Below are positions 3 to 15,389 of a stretch of 20,000 bases of DNA, in pieces (within the stretch, counting starts at the first letter, position 1; every line of letters starts with the position of its first letter). This DNA comes from an uncultured virus (IMG/VR IMGVR_UViG_3300035675_000006). Its lineage: Duplodnaviria; Heunggongvirae; Uroviricota; Caudoviricetes. Location: the IMG/VR virus record IMGVR_UViG_3300035675_000006, one strand, 5' to 3'. The translations under genes and the position numbers were made by a program. The notes below the pieces were generated by a model. It had not been told where the DNA came from. It did not search any database and was given only the letters and a program-made list of their open reading frames with translations.

Positions 3-263
3 AACCCTGACGTTGCACGCAACAAGCCCAAGCATCTGTCATATCATTTGCAAGATAGATATCTGATACGCAATCCCTGTCCTATATTTATTAGCAATGC
101 GCTATTCACATACAATGACTATGCTGGATTACTTCAATGCAACAGCCAGCCTTGGATGCAGGAGATGCATAATTGCGTCTGCTGCGGTCCGGAAGAATAC
201 TTAGCTAGCGCAGAGCTAATCTTTAACGTAATCCAGGCGCGCAGAAAACTCGTCTCAGAATAG
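3..263 (+). CDS. Cys-rich array paralog (CCGPEEYLASAELIFN), probably 5'-truncated by the window edge
   Basis: The frame is open from base 3. It shares the CCGPxEY motif with 5769..6029 and 6017..6247. Confidence 0.75.
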   Translation, partial: NPDVARNKPKHLSYHLQDRYLIRNPCPIFISNALFTYNDYAGLLQCNSQPWMQEMHNCVCCGPEEYLASAELIFNVIQARRKLVSE

Positions 264-306
264 GCGGCGGCATCTACGTGAGATAAAACATGTCAAAGGA
301 GAAGAG

Positions 307-726
307 ATGAACCAGTTACCCGAGAAGTACATTCCTGATTTTAGTCCGTACGAGACAGTAATGCGTGACGCTTTGAGTGGAGAACCCGTCGGTTGGGGAC
401 ACAAACCATTAAAGCGCTTTGCAGATGATGAATTCAGTGAACTCGGAAAAGTAGGAGAATGGTTCTGCTTGCAAGGCAGCTATGCCAACTTATGGTGCCT
501 GGTCACACGTAAATTGACACTTACTGAAGCGATAGACAAGTATGGTCCTGTAACAGAAGTACACACTGGGCCGAATGGCGGATTTAAAGATGTTACTTTC
601 GGTACAAAGAAGTTCTGCTCCGAGTGGCTGGACCCTCGTCAAACTATGAACGTAGCTGATAATCTGATCCGTGCTGACAAACGCGCTCCGCGGATGCCAG
701 ATCGTAAGTTGTCTCGATTCTACTAA
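307..726 (+). CDS. Hypothetical protein, 139 aa (not an array paralog)
   Basis: ORF track; AAAGGAG SD upstream of the ATG. Confidence 0.8.
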   Translation: MNQLPEKYIPDFSPYETVMRDALSGEPVGWGHKPLKRFADDEFSELGKVGEWFCLQGSYANLWCLVTRKLTLTEAIDKYGPVTEVHTGPNGGFKDVTFGTKKFCSEWLDPRQTMNVADNLIRADKRAPRMPDRKLSRFY

Positions 727-743
727 TCAGAGGAGCCTGTTAC

Positions 744-920
744 ATGCATGAAAAACTGATCCCAGTCCCCTGCTCAGGCTGCGGCAGAATCCTGAGCCTG
801 CCCAAGACGGACAAGAACCCCAAGCCCAGAGGCGTGTGTGAGACTTGTCAGGCCAGGACAATCCGTGTCAGTCCGCGCCCCGAGAAACAAGCCGATGCTC
901 GAACTTCAAATCAGGCGTAG
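744..920 (+). CDS. Small Zn-ribbon protein, 58 aa (CSGC...CETC)
   Basis: Manual translation MHEKLIPVPCSGCGRILSLPKTDKNPKPRGVCETCQART...; GAGGAG SD. Below the ORF-track cutoff. Confidence 0.7.
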   Translation: MHEKLIPVPCSGCGRILSLPKTDKNPKPRGVCETCQARTIRVSPRPEKQADARTSNQA

Positions 921-1194
921 CTTTCGCGTGCTTCGGACAGCCTTTTCATGTCCGCCAAGATATGACTGCAACGTGGTCATACTTCGGTATGATCTCGGGA
1001 TAGTGGACATATGCAAAGAACTCACACGCCAAAATTATTTAGATCAGAAATGCTACGACTGCCCTTACGAGCTGGAAGATCTACCTGAGATCACTGAAGT
1101 GGTCTACAACGAACTGGTCAGGCACCAGTCAGGGACTGGTCCTACTGCAGGAGACAAACATGGCGAAGAACCGAAAACCCAACCCGATTCATGA
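895..1194 (+). CDS. Cys-rich array paralog (CYDCPYELEDLPEITEVVYNE)
   Basis: Family motif. ATG 895 is preferred to GTG 838, which lies inside the upstream gene. Confidence 0.7.
   Translation: MLELQIRRSFRVLRTAFSCPPRYDCNVVILRYDLGIVDICKELTRQNYLDQKCYDCPYELEDLPEITEVVYNELVRHQSGTGPTAGDKHGEEPKTQPDS
1117..1142. promoter_or_regulatory. 11-bp-phased GTCAGG motif, copy A
   Basis: gtcaggcacca gtcagggactg gtcc; near-identical to 9105-9130 and 10967-10992. Confidence 0.5.
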
Positions 1195-1360
1195 CGTCAC
1201 AGGTTGCTGCCGCTGGCCGCAGCAGGAAGAGAAGCTGAGGCGCCAGAGGCAGAAGCCTGAGCAGCAAGTAAAGTTCGTAGACGACTGGAACTCGCGCGAC
1301 GGCTTCATCACGAACCCGCCGGCGGAGACCAAGCCTGAAGAACCCAAATCGGAGAAATAG
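1160..1360 (+). CDS. Hypothetical protein, 66 aa, hydrophilic
   Basis: CAGGAG SD; the stop abuts the next ATG (TAGATG). Confidence 0.7.
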   Translation: MAKNRKPNPIHDVTGCCRWPQQEEKLRRQRQKPEQQVKFVDDWNSRDGFITNPPAETKPEEPKSEK

Positions 1361-1582
1361 ATGCTTATCCCGGTGAACATCCATGGCATCATGTTCCACA
1401 AAGACACCTGTCCAGAAGACTGCCCCATGAAAAACAAGGGCAACTGGACAGGCTGTCTTTACTACAACAAGCTCACGAAACAGACCGTCAGCACGTGCCC
1501 GAAAGTGACTTGGGCTGACAAGACCGAAGCAGCCGAGTTCATCAAGAAGCAGTCGGAAGACAAGTCATGCAATTCGAAATGA
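1361..1582 (+). CDS. Cys-rich array paralog (ADKTEAAEFIKK)
   Basis: CPEDCP plus family motif; GGAG SD. Confidence 0.8.
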   Translation: MLIPVNIHGIMFHKDTCPEDCPMKNKGNWTGCLYYNKLTKQTVSTCPKVTWADKTEAAEFIKKQSEDKSCNSK

Positions 1583-1824
1583 TCAATGAACCGTCTCTCA
1601 CACGCTGTCACCGTGTGGACAATATATGGAAAGAGCCATTGCATTGCTCTTCCATCATAGAGTTGGATAAGCTGACGAACACGGCGCGTGTCTGCACGCA
1701 ATACTTTTACAGGGCACATCGTCCGCAGCCAGCCTACGGCACGTGCTGTGAAGAGCCTGATCTGCTTCAGGCTCTTGAAATGTGCTTTAACCATTTGATG
1801 CAGGAGAACAAACATGGCACGTAA
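1567..1824 (+). CDS. Cys-rich array paralog (CCEEPDLLQALEMCFN)
   Basis: Family motif; coupled overlap. Confidence 0.8.
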   Translation: MQFEMINEPSLTRCHRVDNIWKEPLHCSSIIELDKLTNTARVCTQYFYRAHRPQPAYGTCCEEPDLLQALEMCFNHLMQENKHGT

Positions 1825-2188
1825 ACAATACGGTTGGCCTGCAGTACCCCGTAACAAACGCTGCATGATCCTGGCCAGCTACGATACTTATCCGTACATG
1901 CTGGTCCACCAGGCCATGAAACTGCCTAACGATGAATACAGGTGGGTGTCTGGCTGGCATGCAGGACACCAGAACCTGGGTACTTGGCCTAAAGGCCATT
2001 CGAGTCTGCTGGCTGTGTTGTCCACCAGGGACGGCGAGAGACTGGAAGAAGACCTGAAGCGGCTCACCAACGAACACCGCGCGTTAAAAGATTGCTTGCA
2101 TCTGGCCTACATGCTCAAGCGTGATGCACTCTTGACACATTACCCCGTGCGTCTCCCGCGGGGCGTAGCGGACTTGCACGAGATATGA
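1814..2188 (+). CDS. Hypothetical protein, 124 aa (not an array paralog)
   Basis: CAGGAG SD; ATGA overlap with the next gene. Confidence 0.75.
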   Translation: MARKQYGWPAVPRNKRCMILASYDTYPYMLVHQAMKLPNDEYRWVSGWHAGHQNLGTWPKGHSSLLAVLSTRDGERLEEDLKRLTNEHRALKDCLHLAYMLKRDALLTHYPVRLPRGVADLHEI

Positions 2189-2430
2189 ACAGCGATCTGC
2201 GCATCTGGCTGGGATCACAGGAACTCAGCGAATACACTTCTGTGATCTGCAAGAACAGTTCTGGTGGCACGTGCTTTGTCCTGTACCTTCACCGATGGGG
2301 CACTGCGCCACGTCTGTGCCACAGCATTGAGGAGACCTATACTCAAGCCTGCCACGACTGCCCCATGGTCAGCGCCTTCGAGATGGCCTACACCGAGTTC
2401 ATGCGAAAGAAGAAGACATGTTCCGACTAG
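2185..2430 (+). CDS. Cys-rich array paralog (CHDCPMVSAFEMAYTE)
   Basis: Family motif; ATGA coupling. Confidence 0.8.
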   Translation: MNSDLRIWLGSQELSEYTSVICKNSSGGTCFVLYLHRWGTAPRLCHSIEETYTQACHDCPMVSAFEMAYTEFMRKKKTCSD

Positions 2431-2648
2431 CTCATAGCTTCACCGTATACCCTAATAATCTGAAAATACAGTACTTGAGCTGCTCTTACAAAAACTGCCC
2501 AGGCAAAGAGGACGACAACATGTGTGCTCACTGCATATCGGTGAATCCAAGTATATGCTGTGAGATAGACCAAATGGAACTGGCAGAGTTCCTGTACAAC
2601 TGGATGAAAAGGAGATCAAGAGACCATGAAAGCGTTCACACTCATTGA
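2418..2648 (+). CDS. Cys-rich array paralog (CCEIDQMELAEFLYN)
   Basis: Family motif. Confidence 0.8.
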   Translation: MFRLAHSFTVYPNNLKIQYLSCSYKNCPGKEDDNMCAHCISVNPSICCEIDQMELAEFLYNWMKRRSRDHESVHTH

Positions 2649-2940
2649 AGCTTTGTGCTGCGTAGCTGTTGTTCTCATCCTGGGAGGACTAGCATGGCAA
2701 GCCATTGCTGGACCAGGACAACCCACTGTGCTCAAAGAACAGGCTGTGGGCGCCCCAGGCAGCATCGAAGCGAGCCAGACCCGGACTATTATGAAAGTAT
2801 CGCATTACCAGCTCGAGAAGTTCGTAACAGATATGCCTACTGATGTCAGGTTAGTCCAGGCCATACCTGTGTTCTCAGGAAGCGGCAAGACGCTCGATAT
2901 CAGCCACTACCTGTGCATCACTGAGAAAGTGACCAAGTGA
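2626..2940 (+). CDS. Type IV prepilin-like N-terminal cleavage/methylation domain protein, 104 aa
   Basis: MKA|FTLIEALCCVAVVLILGGLAW has Phe+1, Glu+5 and a hydrophobic helix typical of class III signal peptides; AAGGAG SD. Confidence 0.75.
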   Translation: MKAFTLIEALCCVAVVLILGGLAWQAIAGPGQPTVLKEQAVGAPGSIEASQTRTIMKVSHYQLEKFVTDMPTDVRLVQAIPVFSGSGKTLDISHYLCITEKVTK

Positions 2941-3200
2941 ACAAGCCAGTGTATTGCATATTAGAAGAGAATGACGTAATACTATTACGCGTACACGGCC
3001 ATGACCCTAATGTATGCTCCATGATACAGTTCAACGCTAAAAGACCGGAAGCATATGCATGCTGTGAATATGCTTTCAATCTTCACAAAAGGTGTCATGA
3101 CTGTCCTCACGACATGTGCCACATACCTGAAGCCATAGACTTGTGCTTCAACAAGATGCTTGAGTGCATGAGGAGAGACCTGTGGCTAAATTCAATATAA
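2937..3200 (+). CDS. Cys-rich array paralog (CHDCPHDMCHIPEAIDLCFN)
   Basis: Variant family motif; GTGA overlap. Confidence 0.75.
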   Translation: MNKPVYCILEENDVILLRVHGHDPNVCSMIQFNAKRPEAYACCEYAFNLHKRCHDCPHDMCHIPEAIDLCFNKMLECMRRDLWLNSI

Positions 3201-3460
3201 TCGAAGGCGGTCCAAATAGCGGTGTGTGGGCACATACCAGCGAGAAGCACCTGCATGTCCTGTCAGCCGATGGCACGTGTGGAATACTGTTTCACTCGGT
3301 GGCCCTGGACGAATGCGTGATCTGCGACCTGTTCACAAATCCCATGCATCCCGCCTGGGTGCGATGCCATGACTGCAACACTGTCCCTGAAGACCTGATA
3401 CCCATCATTGAGATGCTCAAGAACTACGCGGAGGGCAATCATGTACCTGCGCAGAAATGA
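3182..3460 (+). CDS. Cys-rich array paralog (CHDCNTVPEDLIPIIEMLKN)
   Basis: Family motif; GTG 3182 follows GAGGAG. Confidence 0.75.
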   Translation: MAKFNIIEGGPNSGVWAHTSEKHLHVLSADGTCGILFHSVALDECVICDLFTNPMHPAWVRCHDCNTVPEDLIPIIEMLKNYAEGNHVPAQK

Positions 3461-3677
3461 ACGTGGCGGATTAAGTCTTCGATGCAGGTCTTGTAGCTAT
3501 CAAGGCTTCGTATGCATGGAGTACGACGATCGCGTGTTTCCCGGAGACATATTCGTGTGCGGTCGTGCCGACGGTTACTGGACTGATGGCGTCCCTGAAT
3601 GCGAGTACATAGATCTGCTCATGTCAGCTGAGATACTCATGAACTGGAGGGTGCATGTTAAAACTGACAGTCGTTAA
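3441..3677 (+). CDS. Cys-rich array paralog (CEYIDLLMSAEILMN)
   Basis: Family motif; ATG 3441 follows GGAGG. Confidence 0.8.
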   Translation: MYLRRNERGGLSLRCRSCSYQGFVCMEYDDRVFPGDIFVCGRADGYWTDGVPECEYIDLLMSAEILMNWRVHVKTDSR

Positions 3678-3897
3678 ACCATATATCTACGGAGACAGCG
3701 TAAACATGCTACGAGTTGATTCACACCACTGCGCTGGAACATGTTTCTGCACATATGCTGATAAAGATTTACGCCCTTACGTGTGCCATAATGGCACTGT
3801 AGGAAGCATGAGTGAGATAACAGACCTGTGCCATGATATAGACTGGATCGAGCTGTCCGAGCTTCTCAGAAACTGGAGGAAGCATGCTGGTAGCTAG
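3655..3897 (+). CDS. Cys-rich array paralog (CHDIDWIELSELLRN)
   Basis: Family motif; GGAGG SD. Confidence 0.8.
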   Translation: MLKLTVVKPYIYGDSVNMLRVDSHHCAGTCFCTYADKDLRPYVCHNGTVGSMSEITDLCHDIDWIELSELLRNWRKHAGS

Positions 3898-4117
3898 GGC
3901 CACGGTTGACACGCTCATGATCTATCAGGACACATGTCAAACAGCCGCTTGCTTCTTCACAGATTGCCGGCCCATGGGCGCTTGCCATTACTATACTGTC
4001 CTGTGCGGCCTGGTGTCCACTTGCAAGCATTACAAGACACAGGACTACATACAGCTGGCAGAACTACTGAGAAACTCAGGAGGGCGTCAATGTACGAGTT
4101 CCGCCATCAGAGAATGA
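3884..4117 (+). CDS. Cys-rich array paralog (QDYIQLAELLRN)
   Basis: Family motif; GGAGG SD. Confidence 0.8.
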   Translation: MLVARATVDTLMIYQDTCQTAACFFTDCRPMGACHYYTVLCGLVSTCKHYKTQDYIQLAELLRNSGGRQCTSSAIRE

Positions 4118-4302
4118 GTAGCGCCACCCTGTTCACTCGCAAGGGCTGCGGCCTGTCATGCGTGTATCGCGTGAAATACAAACAGGACATAACGCGCTGC
4201 TGTTTACACATAGACTACTGCAAGTCAATTGACCTGATAGATCTGGCCGAGTTCATAGTCAACTGGACTGACAGGAGGCAACATGCTGGGAATCAGACAT
4301 AA
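4090..4302 (+). CDS. Cys-rich array paralog (CKSIDLIDLAEFIVN)
   Basis: Family motif; ATG 4090 follows CAGGAGG (internal start of track ORF 3934). Confidence 0.8.
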   Translation: MYEFRHQRMSSATLFTRKGCGLSCVYRVKYKQDITRCCLHIDYCKSIDLIDLAEFIVNWTDRRQHAGNQT

Positions 4303-4537
4303 CACTGATTATGGCAACACAGAGCTTTACTCCGAAACGCGAAACATCGAAACCAACACGCTGGGCTGGACGCAATGTTCCGGGGTATGCATGGCTAGAT
4401 ACCCTCCAAGACCAAGCCTGGAAGTGAATTACCCGATCAGCACTTTTGGAATGTGTGAGCTGTTCACGTTCTGTCACCGTGACGAACTGGTCACTCTTTG
4501 TGAAAGGCTCAAGAATGCGCTACGTACTCAAGAGTGA
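4283..4537 (+). CDS. Cys-rich array paralog (CHRDELVTLCERLKN)
   Basis: Variant family motif; CAGGAGG SD. Confidence 0.75.
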   Translation: MLGIRHNTDYGNTELYSETRNIETNTLGWTQCSGVCMARYPPRPSLEVNYPISTFGMCELFTFCHRDELVTLCERLKNALRTQE

Positions 4538-4742
4538 CGGGATAGGGCCATTCATGAGACAGAAGTCTTGCGATGGCATATGCCTGACTCTGATGCGTGT
4601 GCCTGCGAATGATAGCGAAGAACCAATCACCATGTACAGACATTGCCATCTTATGTCCGATTGCACGCGCGTAAACATGATAGACCTAGCCGAGTCTCTG
4701 TACTGCCAAATCAGGAGCAAGCCATGCACACCTTCGATGTGA
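4515..4742 (+). CDS. Cys-rich array paralog (CTRVNMIDLAESLYCQIRSK)
   Basis: Family motif; ATG 4515 chosen. Confidence 0.75.
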   Translation: MRYVLKSDGIGPFMRQKSCDGICLTLMRVPANDSEEPITMYRHCHLMSDCTRVNMIDLAESLYCQIRSKPCTPSM

Positions 4743-4984
4743 ACCATAAGGCGCCATACCTGCAGATCGCATGGCGCTCATGTCCCCGCGATTGCCCTGG
4801 GAAGAGCCGTGACTCTTACACGCACCCGACATACAGCTGTGTGTTCCCTGTGATATCGGAACAACAGCAGGCTCAGACATGCTACACATTTCGTTGCGAG
4901 CCTGAGAGCCTGATAGACCTGGCGGAGTTCCTGAAGCAGAGAGTCTCTAACACAGGAGAAAACACGTGTGACTCATGTGAGTGA
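4724..4984 (+). CDS. Cys-rich array paralog (CEPESLIDLAEFLKQ)
   Basis: Family motif; ATG 4724 follows CAGGAG. Confidence 0.8.
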   Translation: MHTFDVNHKAPYLQIAWRSCPRDCPGKSRDSYTHPTYSCVFPVISEQQQAQTCYTFRCEPESLIDLAEFLKQRVSNTGENTCDSCE

Positions 4985-5213
4985 CGTAACCATATCACAT
5001 CTCAAGTGCTCTGCCATATATGCTCACAATAACAACTGCCCGTACAAGAGAACTTCCATCAGCTTGTACCACAATTACAATCGCGCGCTTACATGCCTGC
5101 ATTTCGACGAACTGAATATATGCCCTGGCTGCGACATGACTCTGGCCATAGAGCTTGTCTTCACAGAGCTCATGCTGGCCAAGCGTCTTAACCAATGGAA
5201 ACCAGTGTGCTGA
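4968..5213 (+). CDS. Cys-rich array paralog (ICPGCDMTLAIELVFTELM)
   Basis: Family motif; close to 6741..7019. Confidence 0.75.
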   Translation: MTHVSDVTISHLKCSAIYAHNNNCPYKRTSISLYHNYNRALTCLHFDELNICPGCDMTLAIELVFTELMLAKRLNQWKPVC

Positions 5214-5234
5214 CACAAGGAGAACCGAGAAACT

Positions 5235-5501
5235 GTGAAGGTAGCATGGTGTGAATCGTCGGGCTGTGTGCTGATAAGGTATATCGACGGCTATGCCGTT
5301 CGTGGCCCTGACATGTGCACTGTCTTGTCATACTCTCTGTGCTGGGAGCTCGAGGATTGCTGCATAACACGTGTACTCAGGTTCTATGGCAAGCCGTGCA
5401 ATGGCTGTTCTCTTAACATACCCTACGGTGTGGTTCCTGCATTCGAGATAGCTTTCAACAGGGCCATACAGGACTTTCAGCATGGCGTTCTCAGGAGCTA
5501 G
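5235..5501 (+). CDS. Cys-rich array paralog (CNGC...VVPAFEIAFN)
   Basis: Variant family motif; AAGGAG SD. Confidence 0.7.
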   Translation: MKVAWCESSGCVLIRYIDGYAVRGPDMCTVLSYSLCWELEDCCITRVLRFYGKPCNGCSLNIPYGVVPAFEIAFNRAIQDFQHGVLRS

Positions 5502-5503
5502 CC

Positions 5504-5776
5504 ATGAAGCATGAGATCTACGAGTTCACCGTGGACGGCAATCTTTGCGGAGTGAGGCGACGCGATAACACCTGTTTCATAGTCAACTGCCGCACCCGCT
5601 TAGGTGCAGTACAGATCTGTCCATATTACGAGTTTATACATGGCCGTTGCTGGCTGTCAGACAACGCTGAGAAAAGGTTTCATTGCAACAACGAGGACTT
5701 CGTAGCTATCGCAGAGATGCTTTACAACGGTTTGCTGAGCATCCCGAAGAAGAAGCGGAGAAGCAAGCGTGTATAA
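5504..5776 (+). CDS. Cys-rich array paralog (CNNEDFVAIAEMLYN)
   Basis: Family motif; CAGGAG SD. Confidence 0.8.
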   Translation: MKHEIYEFTVDGNLCGVRRRDNTCFIVNCRTRLGAVQICPYYEFIHGRCWLSDNAEKRFHCNNEDFVAIAEMLYNGLLSIPKKKRRSKRV

Positions 5777-6029
5777 GCAGCGACCCATGGAGCTCGTGCA
5801 CGCTTACGGGGCGCTATACCTAACTGTCATAGATTGCCCTGCACATACCGACAGCGACGGCAATACCTATCAGGTGCCGGGAGACCTGTTCTCTTTTTAC
5901 TCGCACGTGAGAACCAACGCGTTCCAGATATGTCCACACACCTGCTGTGGACCGCAGGAGTACATCCAGGCAGCCGAGCTGATTTACAATGAGGCGTTCA
6001 ATCCCGGGAGAACCAAATGCATAAGCTGA
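5769..6029 (+). CDS. Cys-rich array paralog (CCGPQEYIQAAELIYN)
   Basis: Family motif, CCGP subfamily. Confidence 0.8.
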   Translation: MYKQRPMELVHAYGALYLTVIDCPAHTDSDGNTYQVPGDLFSFYSHVRTNAFQICPHTCCGPQEYIQAAELIYNEAFNPGRTKCIS

Positions 6030-6247
6030 CGCTGCATGTCCACAATGAATACGTCGGCGTGTACGTCAGGGATTGCCACCGGGGCCCGGCTAACAGGATG
6101 CTGGCGGGCTGCTACTTGTTTCCTGATCACTTCGAGCCCATGTTTGAACGGTGCATTTACGAGTGCTGTGGCCCTGAAGAATACATACTTGCTGCCGAGA
6201 TGGTGTACACGCATTTTCACGAACCCGAGAAGAGAAAGCGAGGTTAA
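6017..6247 (+). CDS. Cys-rich array paralog (CCGPEEYILAAEMVYT)
   Basis: Family motif, CCGP subfamily; GGGAG SD. Confidence 0.8.
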   Translation: MHKLTLHVHNEYVGVYVRDCHRGPANRMLAGCYLFPDHFEPMFERCIYECCGPEEYILAAEMVYTHFHEPEKRKRG

Positions 6248-6249
6248 AC

Positions 6250-6462
6250 ATGGGGTACATGAAGACCTACGGCAAGATCAAGTGCGGCTTCTGTTACGAA
6301 CTAATGAAAGTTGAGCACACTTGCACGGAAACATACAAGTGCACTGCAGGCAAATGTCCCAACTGCAAGGCTACTTTTTACTCGCAGACTAATTTCCCCA
6401 GCAGGTTCAAGGGCCACAGGATAGGTCCTGCGCCCAAACCCAAACCAAGAAAGAGAGTCTGA
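6250..6462 (+). CDS. Small basic Zn-ribbon protein (CGFC...CPNC)
   Basis: Two CxxC pairs; GAGGT SD; Lys-rich tail. Confidence 0.7.
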   Translation: MGYMKTYGKIKCGFCYELMKVEHTCTETYKCTAGKCPNCKATFYSQTNFPSRFKGHRIGPAPKPKPRKRV

Positions 6463-6464
6463 CC

Positions 6465-6740
6465 ATGCCGCCCAAGAAAAAGACCAAGAAAGTCACGGAG
6501 TTTTACGGGCTGTACGACAAAAGCGCGGGAGAACTACAAGGCGGGCTCTACAAGACCGTCGCCGAGGCTGTCTCTGAAGCCGAAGACATATTCCAGGAAG
6601 CCGAAGAGAACGGCGAAGACGTCAAAGACAACTACACGAATTTCTACGTGGTCAAGATCACTCCCGTGGGCTACCTGGAACCTGAGATCACCAAGACAGT
6701 GGACGCGATACTGCACACGGACGAGAAGGACATGGGTTAG
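6465..6740 (+). CDS. Acidic Cys-free hypothetical protein, 91 aa
   Basis: Clean ORF filling the gap; TAGATG junction with the next gene. Confidence 0.75.
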   Translation: MPPKKKTKKVTEFYGLYDKSAGELQGGLYKTVAEAVSEAEDIFQEAEENGEDVKDNYTNFYVVKITPVGYLEPEITKTVDAILHTDEKDMG

Positions 6741-7019
6741 ATGATCAAACTGTCAGTGATACCTAACCGTGAGCTGATAAGCGTCAAGGACAACAAGAAG
6801 AGCATGACGCAACAGACCGCTCTGGTCCTGTATAACACTGAATGCAAGCGAACCAACGGGCCCATCTCGCTGTATATGAAAAGCAAGTATGTCTGGGTCT
6901 GTTTCCCGTTCGATTCGCAAGGAGAAATATGCCCCGGCTGCGACATGGTCCTCGCGACTGAGATGCTTTTCACGGAACTCATGAATATCAAACATGCGGG
7001 AGAATGCACTGATGCCTGA
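6741..7019 (+). CDS. Cys-rich array paralog (ICPGCDMVLATEMLFTELM)
   Basis: Family motif; close to 4968..5213. Confidence 0.8.
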   Translation: MIKLSVIPNRELISVKDNKKSMTQQTALVLYNTECKRTNGPISLYMKSKYVWVCFPFDSQGEICPGCDMVLATEMLFTELMNIKHAGECTDA

Positions 7020-7290
7020 CACAGAAAGTGATTACGTGTTCTTCTACGAACCAGGCCAGTACCGGTTCGGCGTCAGACAGAAGGCCGCGGCCTGCAGCAT
7101 AGCGATCTATCATTACGGCAACGCACGCGTGGACATCTGCTCTTTCTACAATCACGAGATCGGAAAGTGCCGGGTTTGCGGGACTACTCTCTTGCGCGAT
7201 CAGCCAGGGTGCCGTGACATAGACTTCCTGCAGGTCCTGGAGCTCATGTACAACAAAGTCATGGACACTGTCGAGAAACAGGAGGTGTGA
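7012..7290 (+). CDS. Cys-rich array paralog (CRDIDFLQVLELMYN)
   Basis: Family motif; ATG 7012 follows GGGAG. Confidence 0.8.
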   Translation: MPDTESDYVFFYEPGQYRFGVRQKAAACSIAIYHYGNARVDICSFYNHEIGKCRVCGTTLLRDQPGCRDIDFLQVLELMYNKVMDTVEKQEV

Positions 7291-7293
7291 GCC

Positions 7294-7569
7294 GTGTCCG
7301 TAAGCAAACATTGTGGCCTGTATCTGTTCAAACGCCAAAGTGAGATACGCATCCAGGCAAACAAGTACGTAGGCTGCTGGACACTCTGGTACGATCGCCT
7401 GGGGCGCCCGTCAGAGCACCAGATCTGCTGCAGCGCCATTGGCCTGGGCAACTGCAGGGACTGCCCGTACACGGCTCAGGACGTCATGACTGCTCTGGAA
7501 GTTTTCTACACGGAGATACTCAGGAGGCCCGACCATGCAGAAGCTTCTGCTGGCATACGAGAAGAATAA
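7294..7569 (+). CDS. Cys-rich array paralog (CRDCPYTAQDVMTALEVFYTE)
   Basis: Family motif; AGGAGG SD. Confidence 0.8.
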   Translation: MSVSKHCGLYLFKRQSEIRIQANKYVGCWTLWYDRLGRPSEHQICCSAIGLGNCRDCPYTAQDVMTALEVFYTEILRRPDHAEASAGIREE

Positions 7570-7774
7570 CAAGCTTGTGACTATCACGGTGCAAGGATGC
7601 AAACTTCTGGTGTACTATCCTGGATGCTTCAAGCAATACTCTTACGGGATCACCACGTGCTGCAGGTCAGCGCTCGGAGCTCCCGACGCTGACTTCTGCA
7701 GGCGCTGCGAGCCTGCCGATCTGGTCCAGGCTCTCGAGATGTTTTACACGCACATGCGAGGACAGCCATGCTGA
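7535..7774 (+). CDS. Cys-rich array paralog (CRRCEPADLVQALEMFYT)
   Basis: Family motif; CAGGAGG SD. Confidence 0.8.
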   Translation: MQKLLLAYEKNNKLVTITVQGCKLLVYYPGCFKQYSYGITTCCRSALGAPDADFCRRCEPADLVQALEMFYTHMRGQPC

Positions 7775-8064
7775 GATCCATGAGGTTCGTAGTGACCGAC
7801 ATGCGCATAAACTTCTATAACAGCCACGACTGTCTCACATGCACGTGCCGCAGGTTCGAGCCCGACGCGGGCCAGTGGCGCTTCTGCGCGCTCATAAATA
7901 TGAACAGCTCTCTGTGCAGCCATCCGGAATACACATGCACAGGCCTGGACCTGATTGAAGTATGCGAGCTGCTCTTCGATGGCCTGCGCACGGGACAGAT
8001 ACCTTACGTGTATACGCGCCAGGACCTGGTAGCACAGATCAGGAGCGTGACATGTTCACCATAG
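7768..8064 (+). CDS. Cys-rich array paralog (CTGLDLIEVCELLFD)
   Basis: Family motif; GAGGA SD. Confidence 0.78.
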   Translation: MLRSMRFVVTDMRINFYNSHDCLTCTCRRFEPDAGQWRFCALINMNSSLCSHPEYTCTGLDLIEVCELLFDGLRTGQIPYVYTRQDLVAQIRSVTCSP

Positions 8065-8273
8065 TCACGCGTAACAGGCACTTCGGCGTGCTATATAATA
8101 AGTGCCCATTGCCATGCGCGGCCAAGCCCGACGACAGGCTCATACCTTGCGTGTGCACTATGGCCCACTACCGCATAGCCGTATGTCACAGGATACCTCG
8201 TGAAGACTACATAGCTCTGACCGAGTTCTTCATGGAATACCTCAGGAGCAAGTCATGCGAAAAGTCCAGATAA
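8052..8273 (+). CDS. Cys-rich array paralog (EDYIALTEFFME)
   Basis: Family motif; ATG 8052 follows CAGGAG; full-length similarity to 8910..9146. Confidence 0.8.
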   Translation: MFTIVTRNRHFGVLYNKCPLPCAAKPDDRLIPCVCTMAHYRIAVCHRIPREDYIALTEFFMEYLRSKSCEKSR

Positions 8274-8467
8274 GGCTCGGAGTGTACGAAGTGTTCAGTT
8301 TTAGAGCGCCAATGTTCTGTCTCAAGCATCCGCACTGCATAGGAACGTGCCTGGTCGATGACAGGCTGTTCGGTCTCAACACATGCAGGCAAATAACCCA
8401 GTGCTCTCGCAAGGGCCTGGACCTGGTCGAGCTCGCCGAGTACATGCGCAACTATACAGGGAGATAA
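8255..8467 (+). CDS. Cys-rich array paralog (GLDLVELAEYMRN)
   Basis: Family motif; CAGGAG SD. Confidence 0.8.
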   Translation: MRKVQIRLGVYEVFSFRAPMFCLKHPHCIGTCLVDDRLFGLNTCRQITQCSRKGLDLVELAEYMRNYTGR

Positions 8468-8468
8468 C

Positions 8469-8699
8469 ATGGTACTTGAAATGCGCCGGACTCTGGACAC
8501 CGAGCGACTGATGCTTCACACGCCACGCTGTCCGTATGTGTGCATGTCTACGAACAAAGACGGACCGTGCAACCTGTTCGCCCTGTGCGTTTACACGTCA
8601 CCGTGCCTTCTTGAGATAGCCGAGTACATAGCCAATCATGATTACTACGGTTTGGACTGGCCCGAGAATAGGAAAGGAACAAGCTGTGAGCCCAAGTGA
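8469..8699 (+). CDS. Cys-rich array paralog (CLLEIAEYIAN)
   Basis: Family motif; GGGAG SD. Confidence 0.8.
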   Translation: MVLEMRRTLDTERLMLHTPRCPYVCMSTNKDGPCNLFALCVYTSPCLLEIAEYIANHDYYGLDWPENRKGTSCEPK

Positions 8700-8925
8700 C
8701 AAGTACGCGCTCACTATGTCCTTTCAAGGCCTGGATGTCGTGTGCGTTAACAAGATGCTCCCTGAGCCGGCATGTCCTCTTGACTGCCTGAGATCCCATC
8801 CTGATACAACAGAATTTTCATATACGTACTGCATATATCTAACAGCCTGTTCGCGGATAGACCTGATAGATCTGGCTGAGTGCCTGGGCAATCAGATCAG
8901 GAGCAAACCATGTTCGAAGTCCTGA
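8686..8925 (+). CDS. Cys-rich array paralog (CSRIDLIDLAECLGNQIRSK)
   Basis: Family motif; GTG 8686 follows AAAGGA. Confidence 0.78.
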   Translation: MSPSDKYALTMSFQGLDVVCVNKMLPEPACPLDCLRSHPDTTEFSYTYCIYLTACSRIDLIDLAECLGNQIRSKPCSKS

Positions 8926-9146
8926 TACGCCATAACCGTTACGGCATCATGTACACGCAGTGTTCTCAGCCGTGCTGCGAAAAGTCTGAAGACATGGTCC
9001 TGGCCTGCGTCAGTATGTACCTTAACGACAAGAAAGAAGTGGGTGTGTGCAGAGCAGTGAACTACGAGGCTCTGGTGAGTCTCGCCGAGTTCCTGCGCGG
9101 GCAGGTCAGGAACACGTCAGGGACTAGTCATGTTCCAGAAATCTAA
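8910..9146 (+). CDS. Cys-rich array paralog (EALVSLAEFLRG)
   Basis: Family motif; ATG 8910 follows CAGGAG. Confidence 0.8.
   Translation: MFEVLIRHNRYGIMYTQCSQPCCEKSEDMVLACVSMYLNDKKEVGVCRAVNYEALVSLAEFLRGQVRNTSGTSHVPEI
9105..9130. promoter_or_regulatory. 11-bp-phased GTCAGG motif, copy B
   Basis: gtcaggaacac gtcagggacta gtca. Confidence 0.5.
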
Positions 9147-9363
9147 ATACGCGCATCTCTCGGAGGGCCTCTTCGTGACAACCTACAGCATGGACTGCGC
9201 CATCAAGGGCAAGCAGTGCTACGCGACCGTGTGCATGTGGTACATGCGCGGCATTCCCCAGCTGTGCTATCACCTGCAGGAGAGCCCCGAGGGCCTGCTC
9301 GAGCTTGCCGAGTTCCTTCGCAATAACTGCACTTATCCGAGGGACAAGTCATGTTCAAAGTAG
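9130..9363 (+). CDS. Cys-rich array paralog (HLQESPEGLLELAEFLRNNC)
   Basis: Family motif. Confidence 0.8.
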   Translation: MFQKSKYAHLSEGLFVTTYSMDCAIKGKQCYATVCMWYMRGIPQLCYHLQESPEGLLELAEFLRNNCTYPRDKSCSK

Positions 9364-9551
9364 TCGCGTACGCTCCAGACCTGCGCGTGTCATATGTGTC
9401 ATGCGAGCATCACGACAAGTGTGCGTTTCATAACTTCTGCCTGTGCAGGAGCGCGTTCGAACCTCCACAGCCATGCAAGCACCTGCAGTTCAGGCCAGAG
9501 CTGCTTCTCGAGATTGCTGAGTACTTGAAGAATAACTGCAGATACCCGTAG
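9351..9551 (+). CDS. Cys-rich array paralog, last member (HLQFRPELLLEIAEYLKNNC)
   Basis: Family motif; C-terminus closely matches the preceding gene. Confidence 0.8.
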   Translation: MFKVVAYAPDLRVSYVSCEHHDKCAFHNFCLCRSAFEPPQPCKHLQFRPELLLEIAEYLKNNCRYP

Positions 9552-9570
9552 TGAACACAGGAGAACAACC

Positions 9571-10227
9571 GTGGCCGAAAAGAAAGACCATGAACGCATC
9601 ACCCGGGACATGACACTCAACGTGACGCAGTCCGCTCCTCCCGCGGGGACGACGCTGCTCACCGTCATGGACAACCGGGAAAGCCTAAGACATAATCTGT
9701 CCGAGCTTGAACCCAACGTCCCTGGAAAAATAGACGTCGATTACCACGTGCGCCCGGTCCTGGCGATACGCATGCGCACCGTGCGGACGTACAGCAAAGT
9801 CATTTACCCGAACGAGATGGGTGCCTTCACGCCGAGAGCCAGGACAGAATCATGGACCACTCACAAAGAATACATGGACAACCACTGGTCAGTTCTTTTC
9901 GGAAACAACGAGTCGATTCTCATAAGTTTCCTGGTGCCCTCGATCATGTATGTCGACGAACCTTACAGCTGGTCGGAACTCACCGAGGAAATACCCAACT
10001 ACTGCGAGAATGAGGACGCGCCGGATTACATGTCTTTCAGTACGAACGTCATGCTGAGTTCACCGGACACATGTATCGTCAAGGCACAGCTGAAGAAGAT
10101 CATGAAGCAGATACGTCCTGAAGGATACGCAGGCGACATCTGGTTCATAGACAAGGAGACGGGCGAAGAAACGCGTTTTATGCCTGACCCGAAAACCGTT
10201 CAGAAACAGCCAGAGAGCACGCCATGA
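9571..10227 (+). CDS. Hypothetical protein, 218 aa
   Basis: CAGGAG SD before GTG; ATGA overlap with the next gene. Confidence 0.8.
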   Translation: MAEKKDHERITRDMTLNVTQSAPPAGTTLLTVMDNRESLRHNLSELEPNVPGKIDVDYHVRPVLAIRMRTVRTYSKVIYPNEMGAFTPRARTESWTTHKEYMDNHWSVLFGNNESILISFLVPSIMYVDEPYSWSELTEEIPNYCENEDAPDYMSFSTNVMLSSPDTCIVKAQLKKIMKQIRPEGYAGDIWFIDKETGEETRFMPDPKTVQKQPESTP

Positions 10228-10967
10228 GATTGCTCATAGACAGCCCAGAGCTGGACAAGAAATACCGGAACGTTATACGAGCGTGCGTAACAGCGCTAAT
10301 AAGTAAGCACAAAACAGCCTACAGGGTTAGTCTGAAAACCGGGCTGAATCAAGGGACTATCTCGCACATACTGCATGATCGTCGGGAGTACAGCGTCGGA
10401 CATGTGCTAAATAAATTGGCAGCCGAACTGGTTAGGACTGGGATCTGGTATAACTCGAGCCTTAATACTAGCCTGTCAGAGATAGCTAGATTATATTCTA
10501 AAGCGTCTCAGGCATGCGTGCGATATGTCCGCGCGAGTGATACCTGTGAAGGACCAGATAATGCTAAAACTGTATTGCTTGAGCAAAATCTAGTCATGTG
10601 GGTCAAGCCTTGGTTATATAATAAGAAATCTATACAGAGCTTGCGAGAATTATATAAATCAAGACGCGTGATAGGCATTTCGTTTCATAACTATTTAGCT
10701 AAAGGCGACAGATTAACTCTTGATCCTGACAGGTACTTGTCCGGAGAAATAGAATCCTGGCAAGATAAACGCTGCCGTGTCGTGATCCCGAAAGGGACTA
10801 TCGTGAAACACTACACGCACAAGACCAAGATGTGGCACCACGTTAGGATAGTACAGGCTACACGGCGCCGCATGCACTGGCAGGGACAAGTGTTCGTAGG
10901 AAAGCTACAAAACCCGACAGTGCTTGGGTTTCCGGCTAGCTTTGTGTCAGAGTACGGCTATGTCTAG
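10224..10967 (+). CDS. Putative DNA-binding protein with N-terminal Cro/XRE-like HTH, 247 aa, basic
   Basis: TAYRVSLKTGLNQGTISHILHDRR fits the HTH pattern. The rest is unrecognised. Confidence 0.6.
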   Translation: MRLLIDSPELDKKYRNVIRACVTALISKHKTAYRVSLKTGLNQGTISHILHDRREYSVGHVLNKLAAELVRTGIWYNSSLNTSLSEIARLYSKASQACVRYVRASDTCEGPDNAKTVLLEQNLVMWVKPWLYNKKSIQSLRELYKSRRVIGISFHNYLAKGDRLTLDPDRYLSGEIESWQDKRCRVVIPKGTIVKHYTHKTKMWHHVRIVQATRRRMHWQGQVFVGKLQNPTVLGFPASFVSEYGYV

Positions 10968-12090
10968 TCAGGAACTAGTCAGGGACCTGTCCTATCCCCC
11001 ATAAGAGATATCAGTCATTTTGTAAAAGCTCCAGGATGTGTCAGATGACTGATAGGAGCCCGTCAGGAACATGTCCCTTAAGCCACTTGAATCATAAGTG
11101 GCTTTTTTTAGCTGTCACACTGCTGTCACGGACGATTGACGAAGTTATTGGACTTACAAGATTTAGGTCAAACAAGTCCTAAGTATGGCGTGACAGTATA
11201 AGTCCTTACTGTGTAAGGGTTGATTTTTAAATCTTACGACGTGCACGCATTGTACGTCTGCCACCAGTGCCTCTAGAATTGGAGAGAGATAAAAGAGAGA
11301 GTGTTGAGAGTTACCTACGATGTGCAATGACGCATAACGACGGACGCGTCACGATCATAAGCACGCGGCGGCTCAGAGAGATAATGTTATATAGTTATGA
11401 CTCAGAAATCATAAGTGCTTAATGGCGGCTCTATGTAAATGATATTGACTTATGTAATCTACCTAACTCCCATACAATATAAGGGTTTATGACTATTGAC
11501 CGTTTTGAAGGGTCGCGCACGGGACAGGTATCTGACAGGCGTGACAGTGTGACACACGAACTAAACAGATACACATCAAGTACTTACAGTGTCATGCTAT
11601 TTAGATCAAGGCCTGATCAGGACTTATAACAAAAACGCTTATAGCGCTAAATATAAATATATAGAGTATATATACTTATATAAATAATAATAAGCGTGAC
11701 TAGCGTCGAGTTCTACTTGTCTCAGTCATATTTTGCAACGTTCGCATTGTGCACGTCTTTATGCGTCTCTGACACGCCATTTTGCGGTTATGACTGGCAC
11801 TTGAGGTGTCTCGCACGGAAATCTGTCAGGAACCCATTACGTGCCTGACAGGGACTAGTCACTGTACGCCAAAAAAGGGGGGTAGACGCATCGTTCCATG
11901 TCACAGAGTTCTCAAAGTTCGTACCGCCAAGCCCGACCTCCGTGCCTGCCTACCATATTTTTTTCCTGTATTTTTCAGATTCCAGGCCCTATTGGAGTTG
12001 CAAAATGCAACATGTAAAAAACAGGCCCTGGAACGGGCACAATATTATGTTGATAAGTGTGTTAGTTTTTTGGCACGCTTATTAACACAT
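10968..12090. other. Long non-coding region with an AT-rich core and repeated motifs (origin- or genome-terminus-like)
   Basis: No track ORF over 10968-11805; AT-rich run at ~11640-11695; phased G(T/A)CAGG units; repeated GTGACAG/CTGTCAC, TCATAAG and TTATGACT. Confidence 0.5.
11079..11109 (+). terminator. Intrinsic terminator-like hairpin ending the left operon
   Basis: aagccactt-gaatcat-aagtggctt followed by a T run. Confidence 0.55.
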
Positions 12091-12092
12091 GT

Positions 12093-12260
12093 TGTAAGCC
12101 GCCGGGTGAGTACACGGCCCTATTCCCTAAAGGGTGATATTTGGGACGCTAACTGGATCGACAGACCAGTTGTCATGCCCCCAGGCATACGGTTACATCG
12201 GTCTCGAATCGAAATTCGAGCGGGGGTCACACAAAGGTATCCGCATAGGGCGGATATCTA
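12093..12260 (+). ncRNA. Putative structured leader/ncRNA
   Basis: Closing stem tgtaagccg/cggttaca encloses the hairpins gccg/cggc, aactgg/ccagtt and atgcc/ggcat; then ctcgaat/attcgag and tatccgc/gcggata. Confidence 0.35.
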
Positions 12261-12292
12261 GAGAAACGGCAATCACATAAAGGAGAATTGCC

Positions 12293-12841
12293 ATGTTAGA
12301 CCAGAACTTCGTGTACCGGCTTCTCATGGGCAGACTTTGGGTGTCTCCAATCACTTGGAATGTCACTGACACCTCAGGTGAACATGTTGGTGACAGTTTC
12401 CTGACCAGTAACATCATTTGTCTTTGGGAAGACTGGACCCGCCGCGGCAGAGATGCAAACAGGTTCTCGAAGAACGGCTGTACTGTCGGATACATAATCC
12501 GGCGGCACAAAGAAGCCGCGCCGATCGGAAACAAGTTCGTATCAACTTCCAAGTTTGTCCTGCGCTTCGTCAGGAAGTCCGGGAGAGACTTGGCGTATAT
12601 CTACTATTCTCCTCTCCAGAAAGAGAAGTATTTCCCCGGAACGTTCGGGGACAATAACCAGGATCCGTACTTCCTGGTCGGCGTCTATGAGTTCCTGGAG
12701 AATTCCCAGGTAGTTCAGATCAGGCATCTCCCGGTAACAGTTATACCGGAGAACGAGTTCCAGGACTGGGAATCTGAAAAGATCCGGCGCCAGTTCGAAG
12801 ACGAACCCGAGACAGCCGAGATCGACAATCCGGTTCAATAA
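12293..12841 (+). CDS. Hypothetical protein, 182 aa
   Basis: AAAGGAG SD; long ORF. Confidence 0.8.
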   Translation: MLDQNFVYRLLMGRLWVSPITWNVTDTSGEHVGDSFLTSNIICLWEDWTRRGRDANRFSKNGCTVGYIIRRHKEAAPIGNKFVSTSKFVLRFVRKSGRDLAYIYYSPLQKEKYFPGTFGDNNQDPYFLVGVYEFLENSQVVQIRHLPVTVIPENEFQDWESEKIRRQFEDEPETAEIDNPVQ

Positions 12842-12849
12842 GGTCCAAT

Positions 12850-13180
12850 CGGCGAGAGGGAGTTTAACCCTCTCCTAAACTCGCCGTGAGCGCCCGTATT
12901 GTGCGGGCGCTTTTTAGTTTAAGGCCTGCACAGGATCCTGCAGGCTGGAGCGCTTCTCTCTCAGAGGGGGGAGCGCTTTTTACCTTAGCGCGAGTGAGTC
13001 CGCCAGGCCCTGTTCCGGGTGGCAGCTTGGAACAGTTATCTGGCCGGTCCCTGCCAGGATCGTTGGGAAAGCCCACGCCTCGCGCGGTTTACTGGAGAGG
13101 CGACAGCACGTCGTCTCGTGTAGGCAAGTCTGCAGCCAAAGGTGCATAAGGCCTCTTGCCGGGTCTCCAGTATTTTTTAT
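12850..13180 (+). ncRNA. Cluster of structured RNA elements / terminator-like hairpins
   Basis: Six consecutive stem-loops, including 12888-12915 and 12949-12981 (with T tails) and multibranch elements at 12988-13085 and 13090-13172. Confidence 0.55.
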
Positions 13181-13203
13181 TTCTCCTGGAAAGGAGTGAG
13201 TTC

Positions 13204-13521: not shown

Positions 13522-13530
13522 GTGGAAAGA

Positions 13531-13659: not shown

Positions 13660-13664
13660 TTCCT

Positions 13665-13750: not shown

Positions 13751-13765
13751 GCTCAGGAGAAAAAC

Positions 13766-14137: not shown

Positions 14138-14154
14138 CAGCCAGAAAGGCAAAC

Positions 14155-14244: not shown

Positions 14245-14250
14245 AAATAA

Positions 14251-15387: not shown

Positions 15388-15389
15388 AT

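Follow-up and report, generated by a model that had tools for sequence, protein, structure and literature searches.

Introduction

Compact as they are, phage genomes seldom retain more than a handful of paralogs. Phages and prophages encode small Cys4 proteins of the zinc-ribbon or treble-clef type, such as the restriction-alleviation family Lar (PF14354), Ogr/Delta and Com. These are 60-100 aa in length, have four Cys ligands in two groups, the second of which is followed by a helix, and are encoded by single-copy genes in early or accessory positions; Ogr/Delta and Com are small transcription or translation factors. The MGF110 and MGF360 families of ASFV consist of tandem, diverged small-protein paralogs that make up a sizeable share of the viral genome, and arrays of this kind in large eukaryotic DNA viruses are usually read as a product of host-virus conflict. 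Prochlorosin precursor arrays are made up of small Cys-rich paralogs by the dozen, each combining a variable segment with a constant one; the latter is an N-terminal leader, and the system requires a LanM enzyme.

Here we describe a gene array in a 20,000-nucleotide stretch of DNA (referred to as the window) from an uncultured virus of a wetland (IMG/VR IMGVR_UViG_3300035675_000006). The array proteins resemble the phage Cys4 proteins in size, in the grouping of four Cys, in the helix that follows and in gene location; in contrast, there are ~38 copies, the first Cys pair is C-x3-C and not CxxC, and the C-terminal helix is peculiar to this family. The array is like the ASFV families in its tandem, diverged paralogs, whereas those belong to a eukaryotic virus and are unrelated in sequence, and the array forms a translationally coupled operon of bacterial type. 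To our knowledge, there is no other phage array of this size, and none was found in the literature searched.

Results

As listed in Table 1, the plus strand of the window carries 32 family genes at 3..9551, which encode proteins of 66-99 aa (starts refined by Shine-Dalgarno position) and are arranged head to tail on this single strand, interspersed with seven unrelated small genes. The initial annotation had counted about 32 small Cys-rich paralogs of 65-100 aa and had expected the array to continue to the left, and both statements proved correct. Contig L002, which is identical to the window in the overlap, adds six members and one Cys-free relic leftward, where glycosyltransferase, epimerase and sigma-factor genes limit the array. 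Thus, the array comprises at least 38 copies and the relic in ~12.1 kb, with a size span of 66-105 aa, and represents ~16% of the longest recorded contig with these proteins (73,635 bp).

Table 1. Features of the array and its right flank in window coordinates; L002 and P numbers denote another contig and homologous proteins.
Feature	Position	Strand	Comment
Family member 1	3..263	+	5' end cut by window; full length 90 aa (L002:6031-6303)
Non-family gene, 139 aa	307..726	+	No library match
Non-family CxxC...CxxC protein, 58 aa, zinc-ribbon-like	744..920	+	Pfam matches weak only
Family member 2, 99 aa	895..1194	+	Start uncertain, without SD motif
Non-family charged protein, 66 aa	1160..1360	+	
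Family member 3, 73 aa	1361..1582	+	Found in more related fragments than any other member
Family member 4, 85 aa	1567..1824	+	
Non-family gene, 124 aa	1814..2188	+	
Family member 5, 81 aa, CxxC-helix type	2185..2430	+	
Family member 6, 76 aa	2418..2648	+	
Non-family, 104 aa, prepilin-type N-terminal methylation motif and hydrophobic helix	2626..2940	+	PF07963, E 8.8e-4, below cut-off
Family member 7, 87 aa	2937..3200	+	Sole copy with Asp for Glu
Family member 8, 92 aa	3182..3460	+	
Family member 9, 78 aa	3441..3677	+	
Family member 10, 80 aa	3655..3897	+	
Family member 11, 77 aa	3884..4117	+	
Family member 12, 70 aa	4090..4302	+	
Family member 13, 84 aa, weakest motif	4283..4537	+	Both leave-one-out tests narrowly failed
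Family member 14, 75 aa	4515..4742	+	
Family member 15, 86 aa	4724..4984	+	
Family member 16, 81 aa	4968..5213	+	Closest paralog 6741..7019, 39% identity
Family member 17, 88 aa, most divergent	5235..5501	+	15.3 bits with full HMM; leave-one-out failed
Family member 18, 90 aa	5504..5776	+	
Family member 19, 86 aa	5769..6029	+	
Family member 20, 76 aa	6017..6247	+	
Non-family Cys-rich zinc-ribbon-like protein, 70 aa	6250..6462	+	
Non-family acidic protein, 91 aa, without Cys	6465..6740	+	
Family member 21, 92 aa	6741..7019	+	One-residue variant P0002 in another data set
Family member 22, 92 aa	7012..7290	+	
Family member 23, 91 aa	7294..7569	+	
Family member 24, 79 aa	7535..7774	+	Modelled, pLDDT 60
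Family member 25, 98 aa	7768..8064	+	
Family member 26, 73 aa	8052..8273	+	Ortholog P0015, 63% identity; modelled, pLDDT 66
Family member 27, 70 aa	8255..8467	+	
Family member 28, 76 aa	8469..8699	+	
Family member 29, 79 aa	8686..8925	+	
Family member 30, 78 aa	8910..9146	+	Ortholog P0009, 57% identity
Family member 31, 77 aa	9130..9363	+	
Family member 32, 66 aa	9351..9551	+	Last in array
Two non-family genes, 218 and 247 aa	9571..10967	+	Prolong the co-oriented gene string
Terminator-like hairpin, 10 pairs and T run	11080..11104	+	First strong one past the array

Leave-one-out full-length HMMs assigned these proteins to one family, with 30 of the 32 window members scoring above the best of 200 shuffles of their own sequence; the failures were member 13 (8.7 vs 8.8 bits) and member 17 (3.9 vs 8.0 bits). 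With a leave-one-out HMM of the C-terminal motif alone (22 residues), 32 of the 38 copies scored above 200 shuffles, and 33 of 38 exceeded every one of the 233 six-frame ORFs of the window outside the family (top 4.2 bits). An HMM built from all 32 window members gave them 15.3-58 bits, scores that are circular because these members trained it, compared to 8.0 bits at most for the other 233 of the 265 six-frame ORFs. Outside the training set, six ORFs located to the left of the window scored 11.1-24.7 bits, compared to 5.8 bits for the next ORF. Cys accounts for 7.2% of the family residues (189/2,621), compared to 2.3% (68/2,936) in the 18 remaining window proteins. The array proteins are a genuine single multigene family.

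Searches of Pfam, PHROGs, PADLOC, PDB, BFVD and 1.84 billion protein representatives yielded no known relative, in agreement with the initial annotation, which had recognised no named family. When 43 members were compared with Pfam-A (E ≤1), each of 15 families was matched by just one member, in all cases far below the cut-off (best E 0.005). Similarly, 19 PHROGs were matched by one of the 43 members each, none recurring (best E 5.9e-4, unknown function), and PADLOC returned a single chance-level match for 1/43 members (E 0.018), beyond which nothing linked the family to a defence system. The only sequence match to a zinc site in a solved structure was the 'PCxxC + helix' motif of APOBEC (E 1.3-1.4, not significant), in which CxxC at the N-terminus of the helix is followed by residues resembling L-A-E-F-L. 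A cytidine deaminase or APOBEC-like identity was rejected, as only the CxxC-helix aligns, there is no His-x-Glu column, and the proteins (66-105 aa against ~130 aa or more) are about half the size of the deaminase fold.

The N-terminal two-thirds of the proteins, which had initially been regarded as largely unalignable by eye, can be aligned by four Cys columns that are common to the members, span the whole protein and are filled in 36, 39, 42 and 43 of 43 sequences, respectively. The order is C-x3-C, then C, then C, frequently with a fifth Cys or His, and the spacing varies widely between members. None of the 43 sequences contains a hydrophobic segment (18-residue window, Kyte-Doolittle ≥1.6); the neighbouring prepilin-like protein reaches 2.6 in a window of the same size. 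The members are thus predicted to be cytoplasmic, with neither a membrane nor a signal segment. Conserved Cys quartets in cytoplasmic proteins are as a rule metal ligands, and since the four columns are conserved and the proteins appear cytoplasmic, the metal binding suggested by the initial annotation is plausible. AF2 models of members 24 and 26 (pLDDT only 60 and 66) contain 3-4 short strands followed by the C-terminal helix, in the order b1, b2, C-x3-C loop, b3, b4, helix in member 26; for neither of these low-confidence models was a match obtained among solved or predicted viral structures. The presence of two predicted hairpins beside the four conserved Cys is compatible with a zinc ribbon (pLDDT 60-66; no structural match), although the first pair is C-x3-C, unlike the classic CxxC zinc knuckle.

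The same four Cys, together with one invariant carboxylate, would also suit iron-sulfur or redox mini-proteins (WhiB-type-like, or metal or thiol buffers) in place of structural zinc, and several members carry 'CP' after Cys2, a feature resembling ferredoxin motifs. However, none of the 43 members matched the WhiB or ferredoxin families of Pfam, the Cys spacing is highly variable and the need for 38 copies is not obvious, making this alternative very unlikely.

The amphipathic C-terminal helix has the consensus D-h-h-x-h-A-E-h-h-[FY]-N and begins 2-9 residues past the last Cys. The second codon positions of 6-7 of its residues are T or C, which makes these residues hydrophobic, and ~7 of the 11 motif positions are hydrophobic. 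Since the helix is mostly hydrophobic and starts just past the last Cys, it appears to form the fold's core. The conserved Glu is present in 42/43 sequences (codon GAR in 37/38 copies and GAC in 1/38), and this Glu and an Asn four residues away lie on the polar face of the helix in 37/38 and 30/38 copies, respectively. Third positions of the helix codons carry only 0.04-0.5 bits, whereas 0.7-2.0 bits are found at many of the first and second ones, which indicates that the constraint acts on the protein, as had been claimed from the outset.

The initial annotation had divided the proteins into a variable recognition domain and a constant docking helix. In such an adaptor library, the helix would dock all copies to one common partner (a phage or host hub such as a protease, RNA polymerase or phage enzyme) or mediate co-assembly; in its favor, the helix stands out as the sole linear motif with strong conservation, displays the Glu/Asn pair on its polar face, survives in the Cys-free relic (L002:3247-3459), where 13/20 residues are identical to the neighbouring copy, and would be present in a set of co-expressed copies. 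However, the Cys scaffold is conserved over the whole protein, a hydrophobic helix straight after the last Cys suits a buried core better than an exposed docking peptide, and there is no candidate partner. The proposed division was therefore not upheld, and we consider an adaptor library rather unlikely.

A constant segment in many small Cys-rich paralogs would also be expected of a library of RiPP- or bacteriocin-like precursors, with the helix as the recognition element for a common modifying enzyme, maybe one of the adjoining glycosyltransferases, and a Cys-rich variable core; two GT2-type genes border the first block of members. Unlike in prochlorosins, the constant segment is C-terminal and directly follows the last Cys, and conservation of the Cys positions points to a fold rather than a free RiPP core. 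Furthermore, 66-105 aa is large for precursors, we saw neither a double-Gly nor any other cleavage motif, and Pfam identified no maturation enzyme (lanthipeptide synthetase, radical-SAM or YcaO), peptidase or exporter among the 59 proteins of the 26 kb covered, out of ~74 kb. A RiPP precursor library is extremely unlikely.

In total, 28 of the 38 gene junctions overlap, and GGAG, GAGG or AGGA is found at −18 to −5 of 31/40 starts, compared to 11% at random positions. The ribosome-binding site of the downstream gene lies within the final codons of the upstream gene. Accordingly, while the near-invariant Glu and the helix motif of the initial annotation stood, part of the conserved tail is the AGGAG and ATG of the next overlapping gene in another reading frame. 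Because this ATG is read as Cys in 10/29 and as His in 9/29 overlapping junctions, Cys/His counts per protein are inflated. No strong-stem terminator-like site was found on the plus strand inside the array (best 6 pairs, 3 G-C), and the hairpin downstream of it (Table 1) probably ends the transcription unit.

These overlaps bear on the alternative that the proteins are nucleic-acid-binding zinc-finger regulators like Ogr/Delta or Com, possibly in concert with the phage sigma factor whose gene lies upstream. Their small size, the Cys4 pattern, the sigma-70-family gene 2.2 kb upstream of the array and the basic tails of some members (e.g., L002:3967-4227 and L002:4196-4510, pI 9.9-10.3) are in line with such a role, but the basic tail is largely the ribosome-binding site of the next gene read as codons. 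In addition, 19/43 members are acidic, the conserved helix is acidic to neutral, the profile matches of the 43 members at E up to 1 were isolated, at chance level and all to different families, and ~38 distinct regulators in a 74-kb element are hard to rationalise. We regard this role as quite improbable.

The copies had been described as hypervariable. Identity between paralogs does not exceed 39%, whereas it amounts to 57-70% between orthologs from related phage fragments. For member 3, orthologs P0020 and P0022 are 64-70% identical and loci L003 and L004 75-76%, and a comparison with an ortholog gave a pN of 0.15 with saturated synonymous sites. SNPs between strains were mostly synonymous (29 vs 13 non-synonymous). 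The copies are thus old and individually conserved, and hypervariability at the population level was rejected. A diversity-generating retroelement target was likewise rejected, as Pfam revealed no reverse-transcriptase domain and strain differences are mostly synonymous. The sole repeats are helix-coding and junction repeats, 61-83% identical.

The setting is of phage type, with small, dense genes on one strand, the sigma-70-family gene and a neighbour gene that matches PHROG 14088 (E 1e-11). The 26 kb covered contain no hallmark virion or replication gene, and the contig is absent from the viral collection searched, so that phage identity is itself a deduction, and the element is probably a phage.

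Discussion

We tentatively favor the reading that the array encodes an orphan family of probably zinc-binding cytoplasmic mini-proteins, expressed from one translationally coupled operon and diversified toward different targets, a function that we infer. The four Cys would bind a structural metal ion, with Zn(II) as the best candidate, that staples a small beta-hairpin/beta-hairpin/helix domain with the conserved helix as its hydrophobic core. Only the Glu and Asn (i, i+4) would be exposed on the polar face of the helix, possibly as a common functional patch, and the loops and the N-terminal hairpin may have diversified to give each copy a separate target, most plausibly a host protein during early takeover or counter-defence. 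In line with such diversification, the members have diverse surfaces, with pI values from 4.5 to 10.3 (19/43 acidic and 11/43 basic). Translational coupling would ensure joint production of all copies. The near-invariant Glu, which zinc-binding mini-proteins do not explain, could mean a catalytic or ligand role.

A more specific proposal, which we consider unlikely, is that ~38 zinc-stapled mini-binders from the coupled operon each engage a different host protein (e.g., variants of defence or surface machinery) and present the common Glu/Asn helix face to one effector or hub. The array would then be the bacterial-virus counterpart of F-box/SOCS-box adaptors and of the multigene families of eukaryotic viruses.

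The ribosome-binding sites coded within overlaps provide an example of translation signals that mimic protein motifs. Since the copies are old and individually conserved, each is probably needed, and ~12.1 kb is devoted to one orphan family. If the copies are diversified binders, they would constitute a natural library of minimal metal-stabilised scaffolds and would illustrate with unusual clarity how a phage can use gene-family expansion as a strategy.

Extent and gene content of the array

The ORF listing and its translation gave an unbroken string of small plus-strand genes running from the left edge of the window to position 9551. When the gene starts were re-set by the position of the Shine-Dalgarno core, GGAG, GAGG or AGGA was found at −18 to −5 in 31 of 40 starts, against 11% at random positions, and 32 of the genes, encoding proteins of 66-99 aa, were assigned to the family of small Cys-rich paralogs. 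Scanning metagenomes with the most conserved member yielded L001 and L002, two contigs that are identical to the window in the overlap; base 1 of the window corresponds to base 6041 of L002. As the initial annotation had expected, the array continues to the left of the window: L002 holds six more members and a relic, and the array then ends. These six members scored 11.1-24.7 bits with an HMM from whose training they were absent, compared with 5.8 bits for the next ORF. The last 20 residues of the relic are 65% identical (13/20) to the helix of the next gene, and it represents a decayed member or else a helix-only variant. Because methyltransferase-like, epimerase, GT2 and sigma-70-family genes (for the last, region 4, E 1.8e-13; TIGR02937, 48 bits, above the cut-off of 42.9) follow beyond the members, the array is bounded on this side. 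In all, no fewer than 38 members occupy about 12.1 kb, which corresponds to some 16% of the longest contig recorded for family proteins (73,635 bp). A further locus from the scan, L005, was a false positive, namely a bacterial polysaccharide locus.

Features of the array and its flanks (window coordinates unless prefixed by L002, the contig extending the window to the left)
Feature	Location	Strand	Description
Upstream genes	L002:400-3275		165-aa GxGxG methyltransferase-like, NAD-epimerase/RmlD-like, GT2 glycosyltransferase and sigma-70-family genes
Relic ORF	L002:3247-3459		71 aa; one Cys, with all four conserved family Cys absent
Six further members	L002:3449-5021		HMM-scored
115-aa gene	L002, between the six-member block and the first window member		Beside the GT2-like gene
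Second GT2-like gene	L002:5453-6031		Separates 6 array members from the other 32
First member, full length	L002:6031-6303		90 aa
Non-family small gene	307-726	+	Among members
Non-family small gene	744-920	+	Among members
Non-family small gene	1160-1360	+	Among members
Non-family small gene	1814-2188	+	Among members
Non-family small gene	2626-2940	+	Among members
Non-family small gene	6250-6462	+	Among members
Non-family small gene	6465-6740	+	Among members
First strong terminator-like hairpin past the array	11080-11104	+	
Second strong terminator-like hairpin	12888-12912	+	

In the surrounding 26 kb only a few genes could be assigned, namely those for a sigma factor, an epimerase, two GT2-type proteins and a protein with a prepilin motif, besides one PHROG of unassigned function, and the label "phage" is based on gene context and architecture, not on hallmark genes. 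The GT2, epimerase and methyltransferase genes of the L002 flank look like a sugar-modification module. The N-terminal 40 residues of a 228-aa protein (16419-17105, plus strand) matched PHROG 14088 (E 1.1e-11; function unassigned), which is the window's only strong link to catalogued phage proteins. Among the non-family genes in the array, 744-920 and 6250-6462 encode unrelated zinc-ribbon-like proteins (58 and 70 aa) of the CxxC...CxxC type, neither of which was matched by the family HMM. At its N-terminus, the 104-aa product of 2626-2940 combines a motif for prepilin-type cleavage/methylation with a helix of strong hydrophobicity (hydropathy 2.6), with a Pfam N_methyl match (E 8.8e-4) slightly short of the cut-off. 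This protein may be a phage-encoded pseudopilin, and its presence could suggest that the host has type IV pili or type II secretion, or that the element interferes with such systems.

Family membership and protein-level constraint

Four tests agreed that the family exceeds chance. With full-length leave-one-out HMMs, each protein was compared with 200 shuffles of its own sequence, and 30 of the 32 window members outscored the best shuffle; the two that failed were 5235-5498, at 3.9 bits against 8.0, and 4283-4534, at 8.7 bits against 8.8. When the leave-one-out HMM was restricted to 22 residues around the C-terminal motif, the check that the initial annotation had proposed, 32 of 38 members exceeded 200 shuffles and 33 of 38 scored higher than every one of the window's 233 six-frame ORFs outside the family, the best of which reached 4.2 bits. 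An HMM of all 32 members gave 15.3-58 bits for members, a comparison that is circular for them, and at most 8.0 bits for other six-frame ORFs; it found no more members at 9552-20000 or on the opposite strand. Finally, Cys makes up 7.2% of family residues, compared with 2.3% in the other window proteins.

Of 38 copies, 37 have GAR as the codon of the conserved helix Glu, the remaining copy having GAC, and third codon positions across the helix hold almost no information; therefore, as had been proposed, it is the protein that is constrained, not a repeat at the DNA level. A repeat search found only helix-coding and junction repeats in the array, 61-83% identical. Copies that lie close together resemble each other only slightly more than those far apart: of the 33 significant pairs, 7 are within two ranks (permutation p = 0.04).

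Overlapping genes and the probable transcription unit

Twenty-eight of the 38 junctions in the window array overlap, by 4-35 bases, a layout that indicates translational coupling of the array genes as an operon. The residues that follow the helix (R-S-K-P-C, N-W-R-K-H and similar) are the AGGAG and ATG of the next gene read in another frame; in the overlapping junctions (n = 29) this ATG is read as part of a Cys in 10 and of a His in 9, so the Cys and His of the tail should not be taken for ligands or for a protein motif. No strong-stem terminator-like site was found on the plus strand inside the array, where the best candidate had 6 pairs, 3 of them G-C. GC content drops to 43% at 11-12 kb, and there are few convincing genes at 11.0-12.3 kb. 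Given the low GC, the hairpins and the sparse genes, the region 11000-13150 probably separates transcription units.

Age of the expansion and selection

Identity between paralogs of the element reaches at most 39%, and BLASTP at E < 1e-3 recovers only 33 of the 703 paralog pairs. When the family profile was run against 1.84 billion protein representatives, 23 proteins reached E ≤0.001, of which 17 were the window's own and the other six, on short contigs from other data sets, were a one-residue variant and five orthologs of specific members (57-70% identity). Since orthologs are far closer than paralogs, the expansion took place before these phages diverged, and every copy has been retained. 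Purifying selection acts on the copies: the ortholog of member 1361-1582 on the related loci L003 and L004 has a pN of 0.15, with synonymous sites saturated. At L004:1474-2466 this ortholog has a Gly/Pro/Thr-rich C-terminal extension and lies immediately upstream of an epimerase gene (72% identical), which shows that gene order around the array differs between relatives.

The array was present, without indels or joints, in contigs from four runs of one wetland/freshwater study. The 40 listed strain differences gave 42 gene assignments, 29 synonymous and 13 non-synonymous, and the description of the paralogs as hypervariable does not hold; the family has instead diverged. A second strain in run X4 showed dense clusters of differences at 4298-4440 and 5757-5845 (13 + 13 listed), mostly synonymous and in two members. 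In the same run a difference at 4300 changes the stop codon of member 4090-4302 to Gln.

Search for known relatives

As in the initial annotation, no named family was recognised for the paralogs. No Pfam, PHROG or PADLOC family was matched by more than one of 43 sequences (38 array copies and five outside relatives) at E up to 1. Against all PDB sequences the best profile matches had E 0.5-1.4, the one at 0.5 being a chemokine; the sole match to a zinc site, at E 1.3-1.4, was to the "PCxxC + helix" motif of APOBEC3, and it is confined to the knuckle-helix part and does not include HxE. With two low-confidence models, nothing usable was obtained from Foldseek against the PDB (best E 0.5), VIA-align wide (best Z 2.4) or a BFVD structure search (best E 1.8). 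The ESM Atlas gave no match at ≥0.9, and its nearest named cluster, "Ral antirestriction" (0.76), was at chance level. A word-indexed search with the CxxC-helix subtype returned only proteins on this element's contigs or on short contigs. There was no match for the window DNA in cultured phages, for a 335-aa neighbour protein in phages, for a 323-aa neighbour protein or the window's first 40 bases in viral contigs, or for the 1361-type alignment in viral and genome contigs. No published description of such a phage array was found among the matches listed by full-text literature searches.

Protein anatomy and proposed function

The alignment of the 43 sequences has a conserved scaffold made up of four Cys columns, occupied in 36, 39, 42 and 43 of them, and one Glu, which is shared by 42. 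The usual order is an N-terminal beta-hairpin, C-x3-C (often CPxxC), Cys3 after 10-25 residues and Cys4 after a further 6-14, often with a second Cys or His 1-6 residues downstream (CxxC-helix subtype in 16 sequences; C-H or C-x-H forms in others). The helix D-h-h-x-h-A-E-h-h-[FY]-N begins 2-9 residues past the Cys4 region. Isoelectric points range from 4.5 to 10.3, with 19 of 43 sequences acidic and 11 basic. As no sequence of the 43 has a signal-peptide- or membrane-type hydrophobic segment, the members should be cytoplasmic. Conserved Cys quartets in the cytoplasm normally bind metal, and the four Cys would hold a structural metal, most likely zinc; reading the members as Fe-S proteins is a rival, as are readings as regulators or peptide precursors. 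A homodimer prediction with zinc gave a score of 0.12 (mark 0.42), which counts neither for nor against.

Both AF2 models from family alignments have short strands followed by the C-terminal helix, at low confidence (pLDDT 60.4/65.8, pTM 0.47/0.43). The codon table places hydrophobic residues at about seven helix positions, and in a helical wheel calculated from the motif these cover more than half of the surface, leaving a polar side of the Glu, the Asn at i+4 and one variable position. The initial annotation had proposed a variable recognition domain joined to a constant docking helix, a mechanism that the evidence supports only in part. An exposed Glu and Asn, together with the relic, which retains the helix but lacks the conserved Cys, leave room for such an arrangement, although a helix serving as the core of the protein is the more economical explanation. 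With the helix as its core, each member would be a hairpin-hairpin-helix mini-domain. The array is real and striking, an orphan family whose expansion is unusual for a phage-sized element, and its variable loops may have diversified toward different binding targets in early infection.
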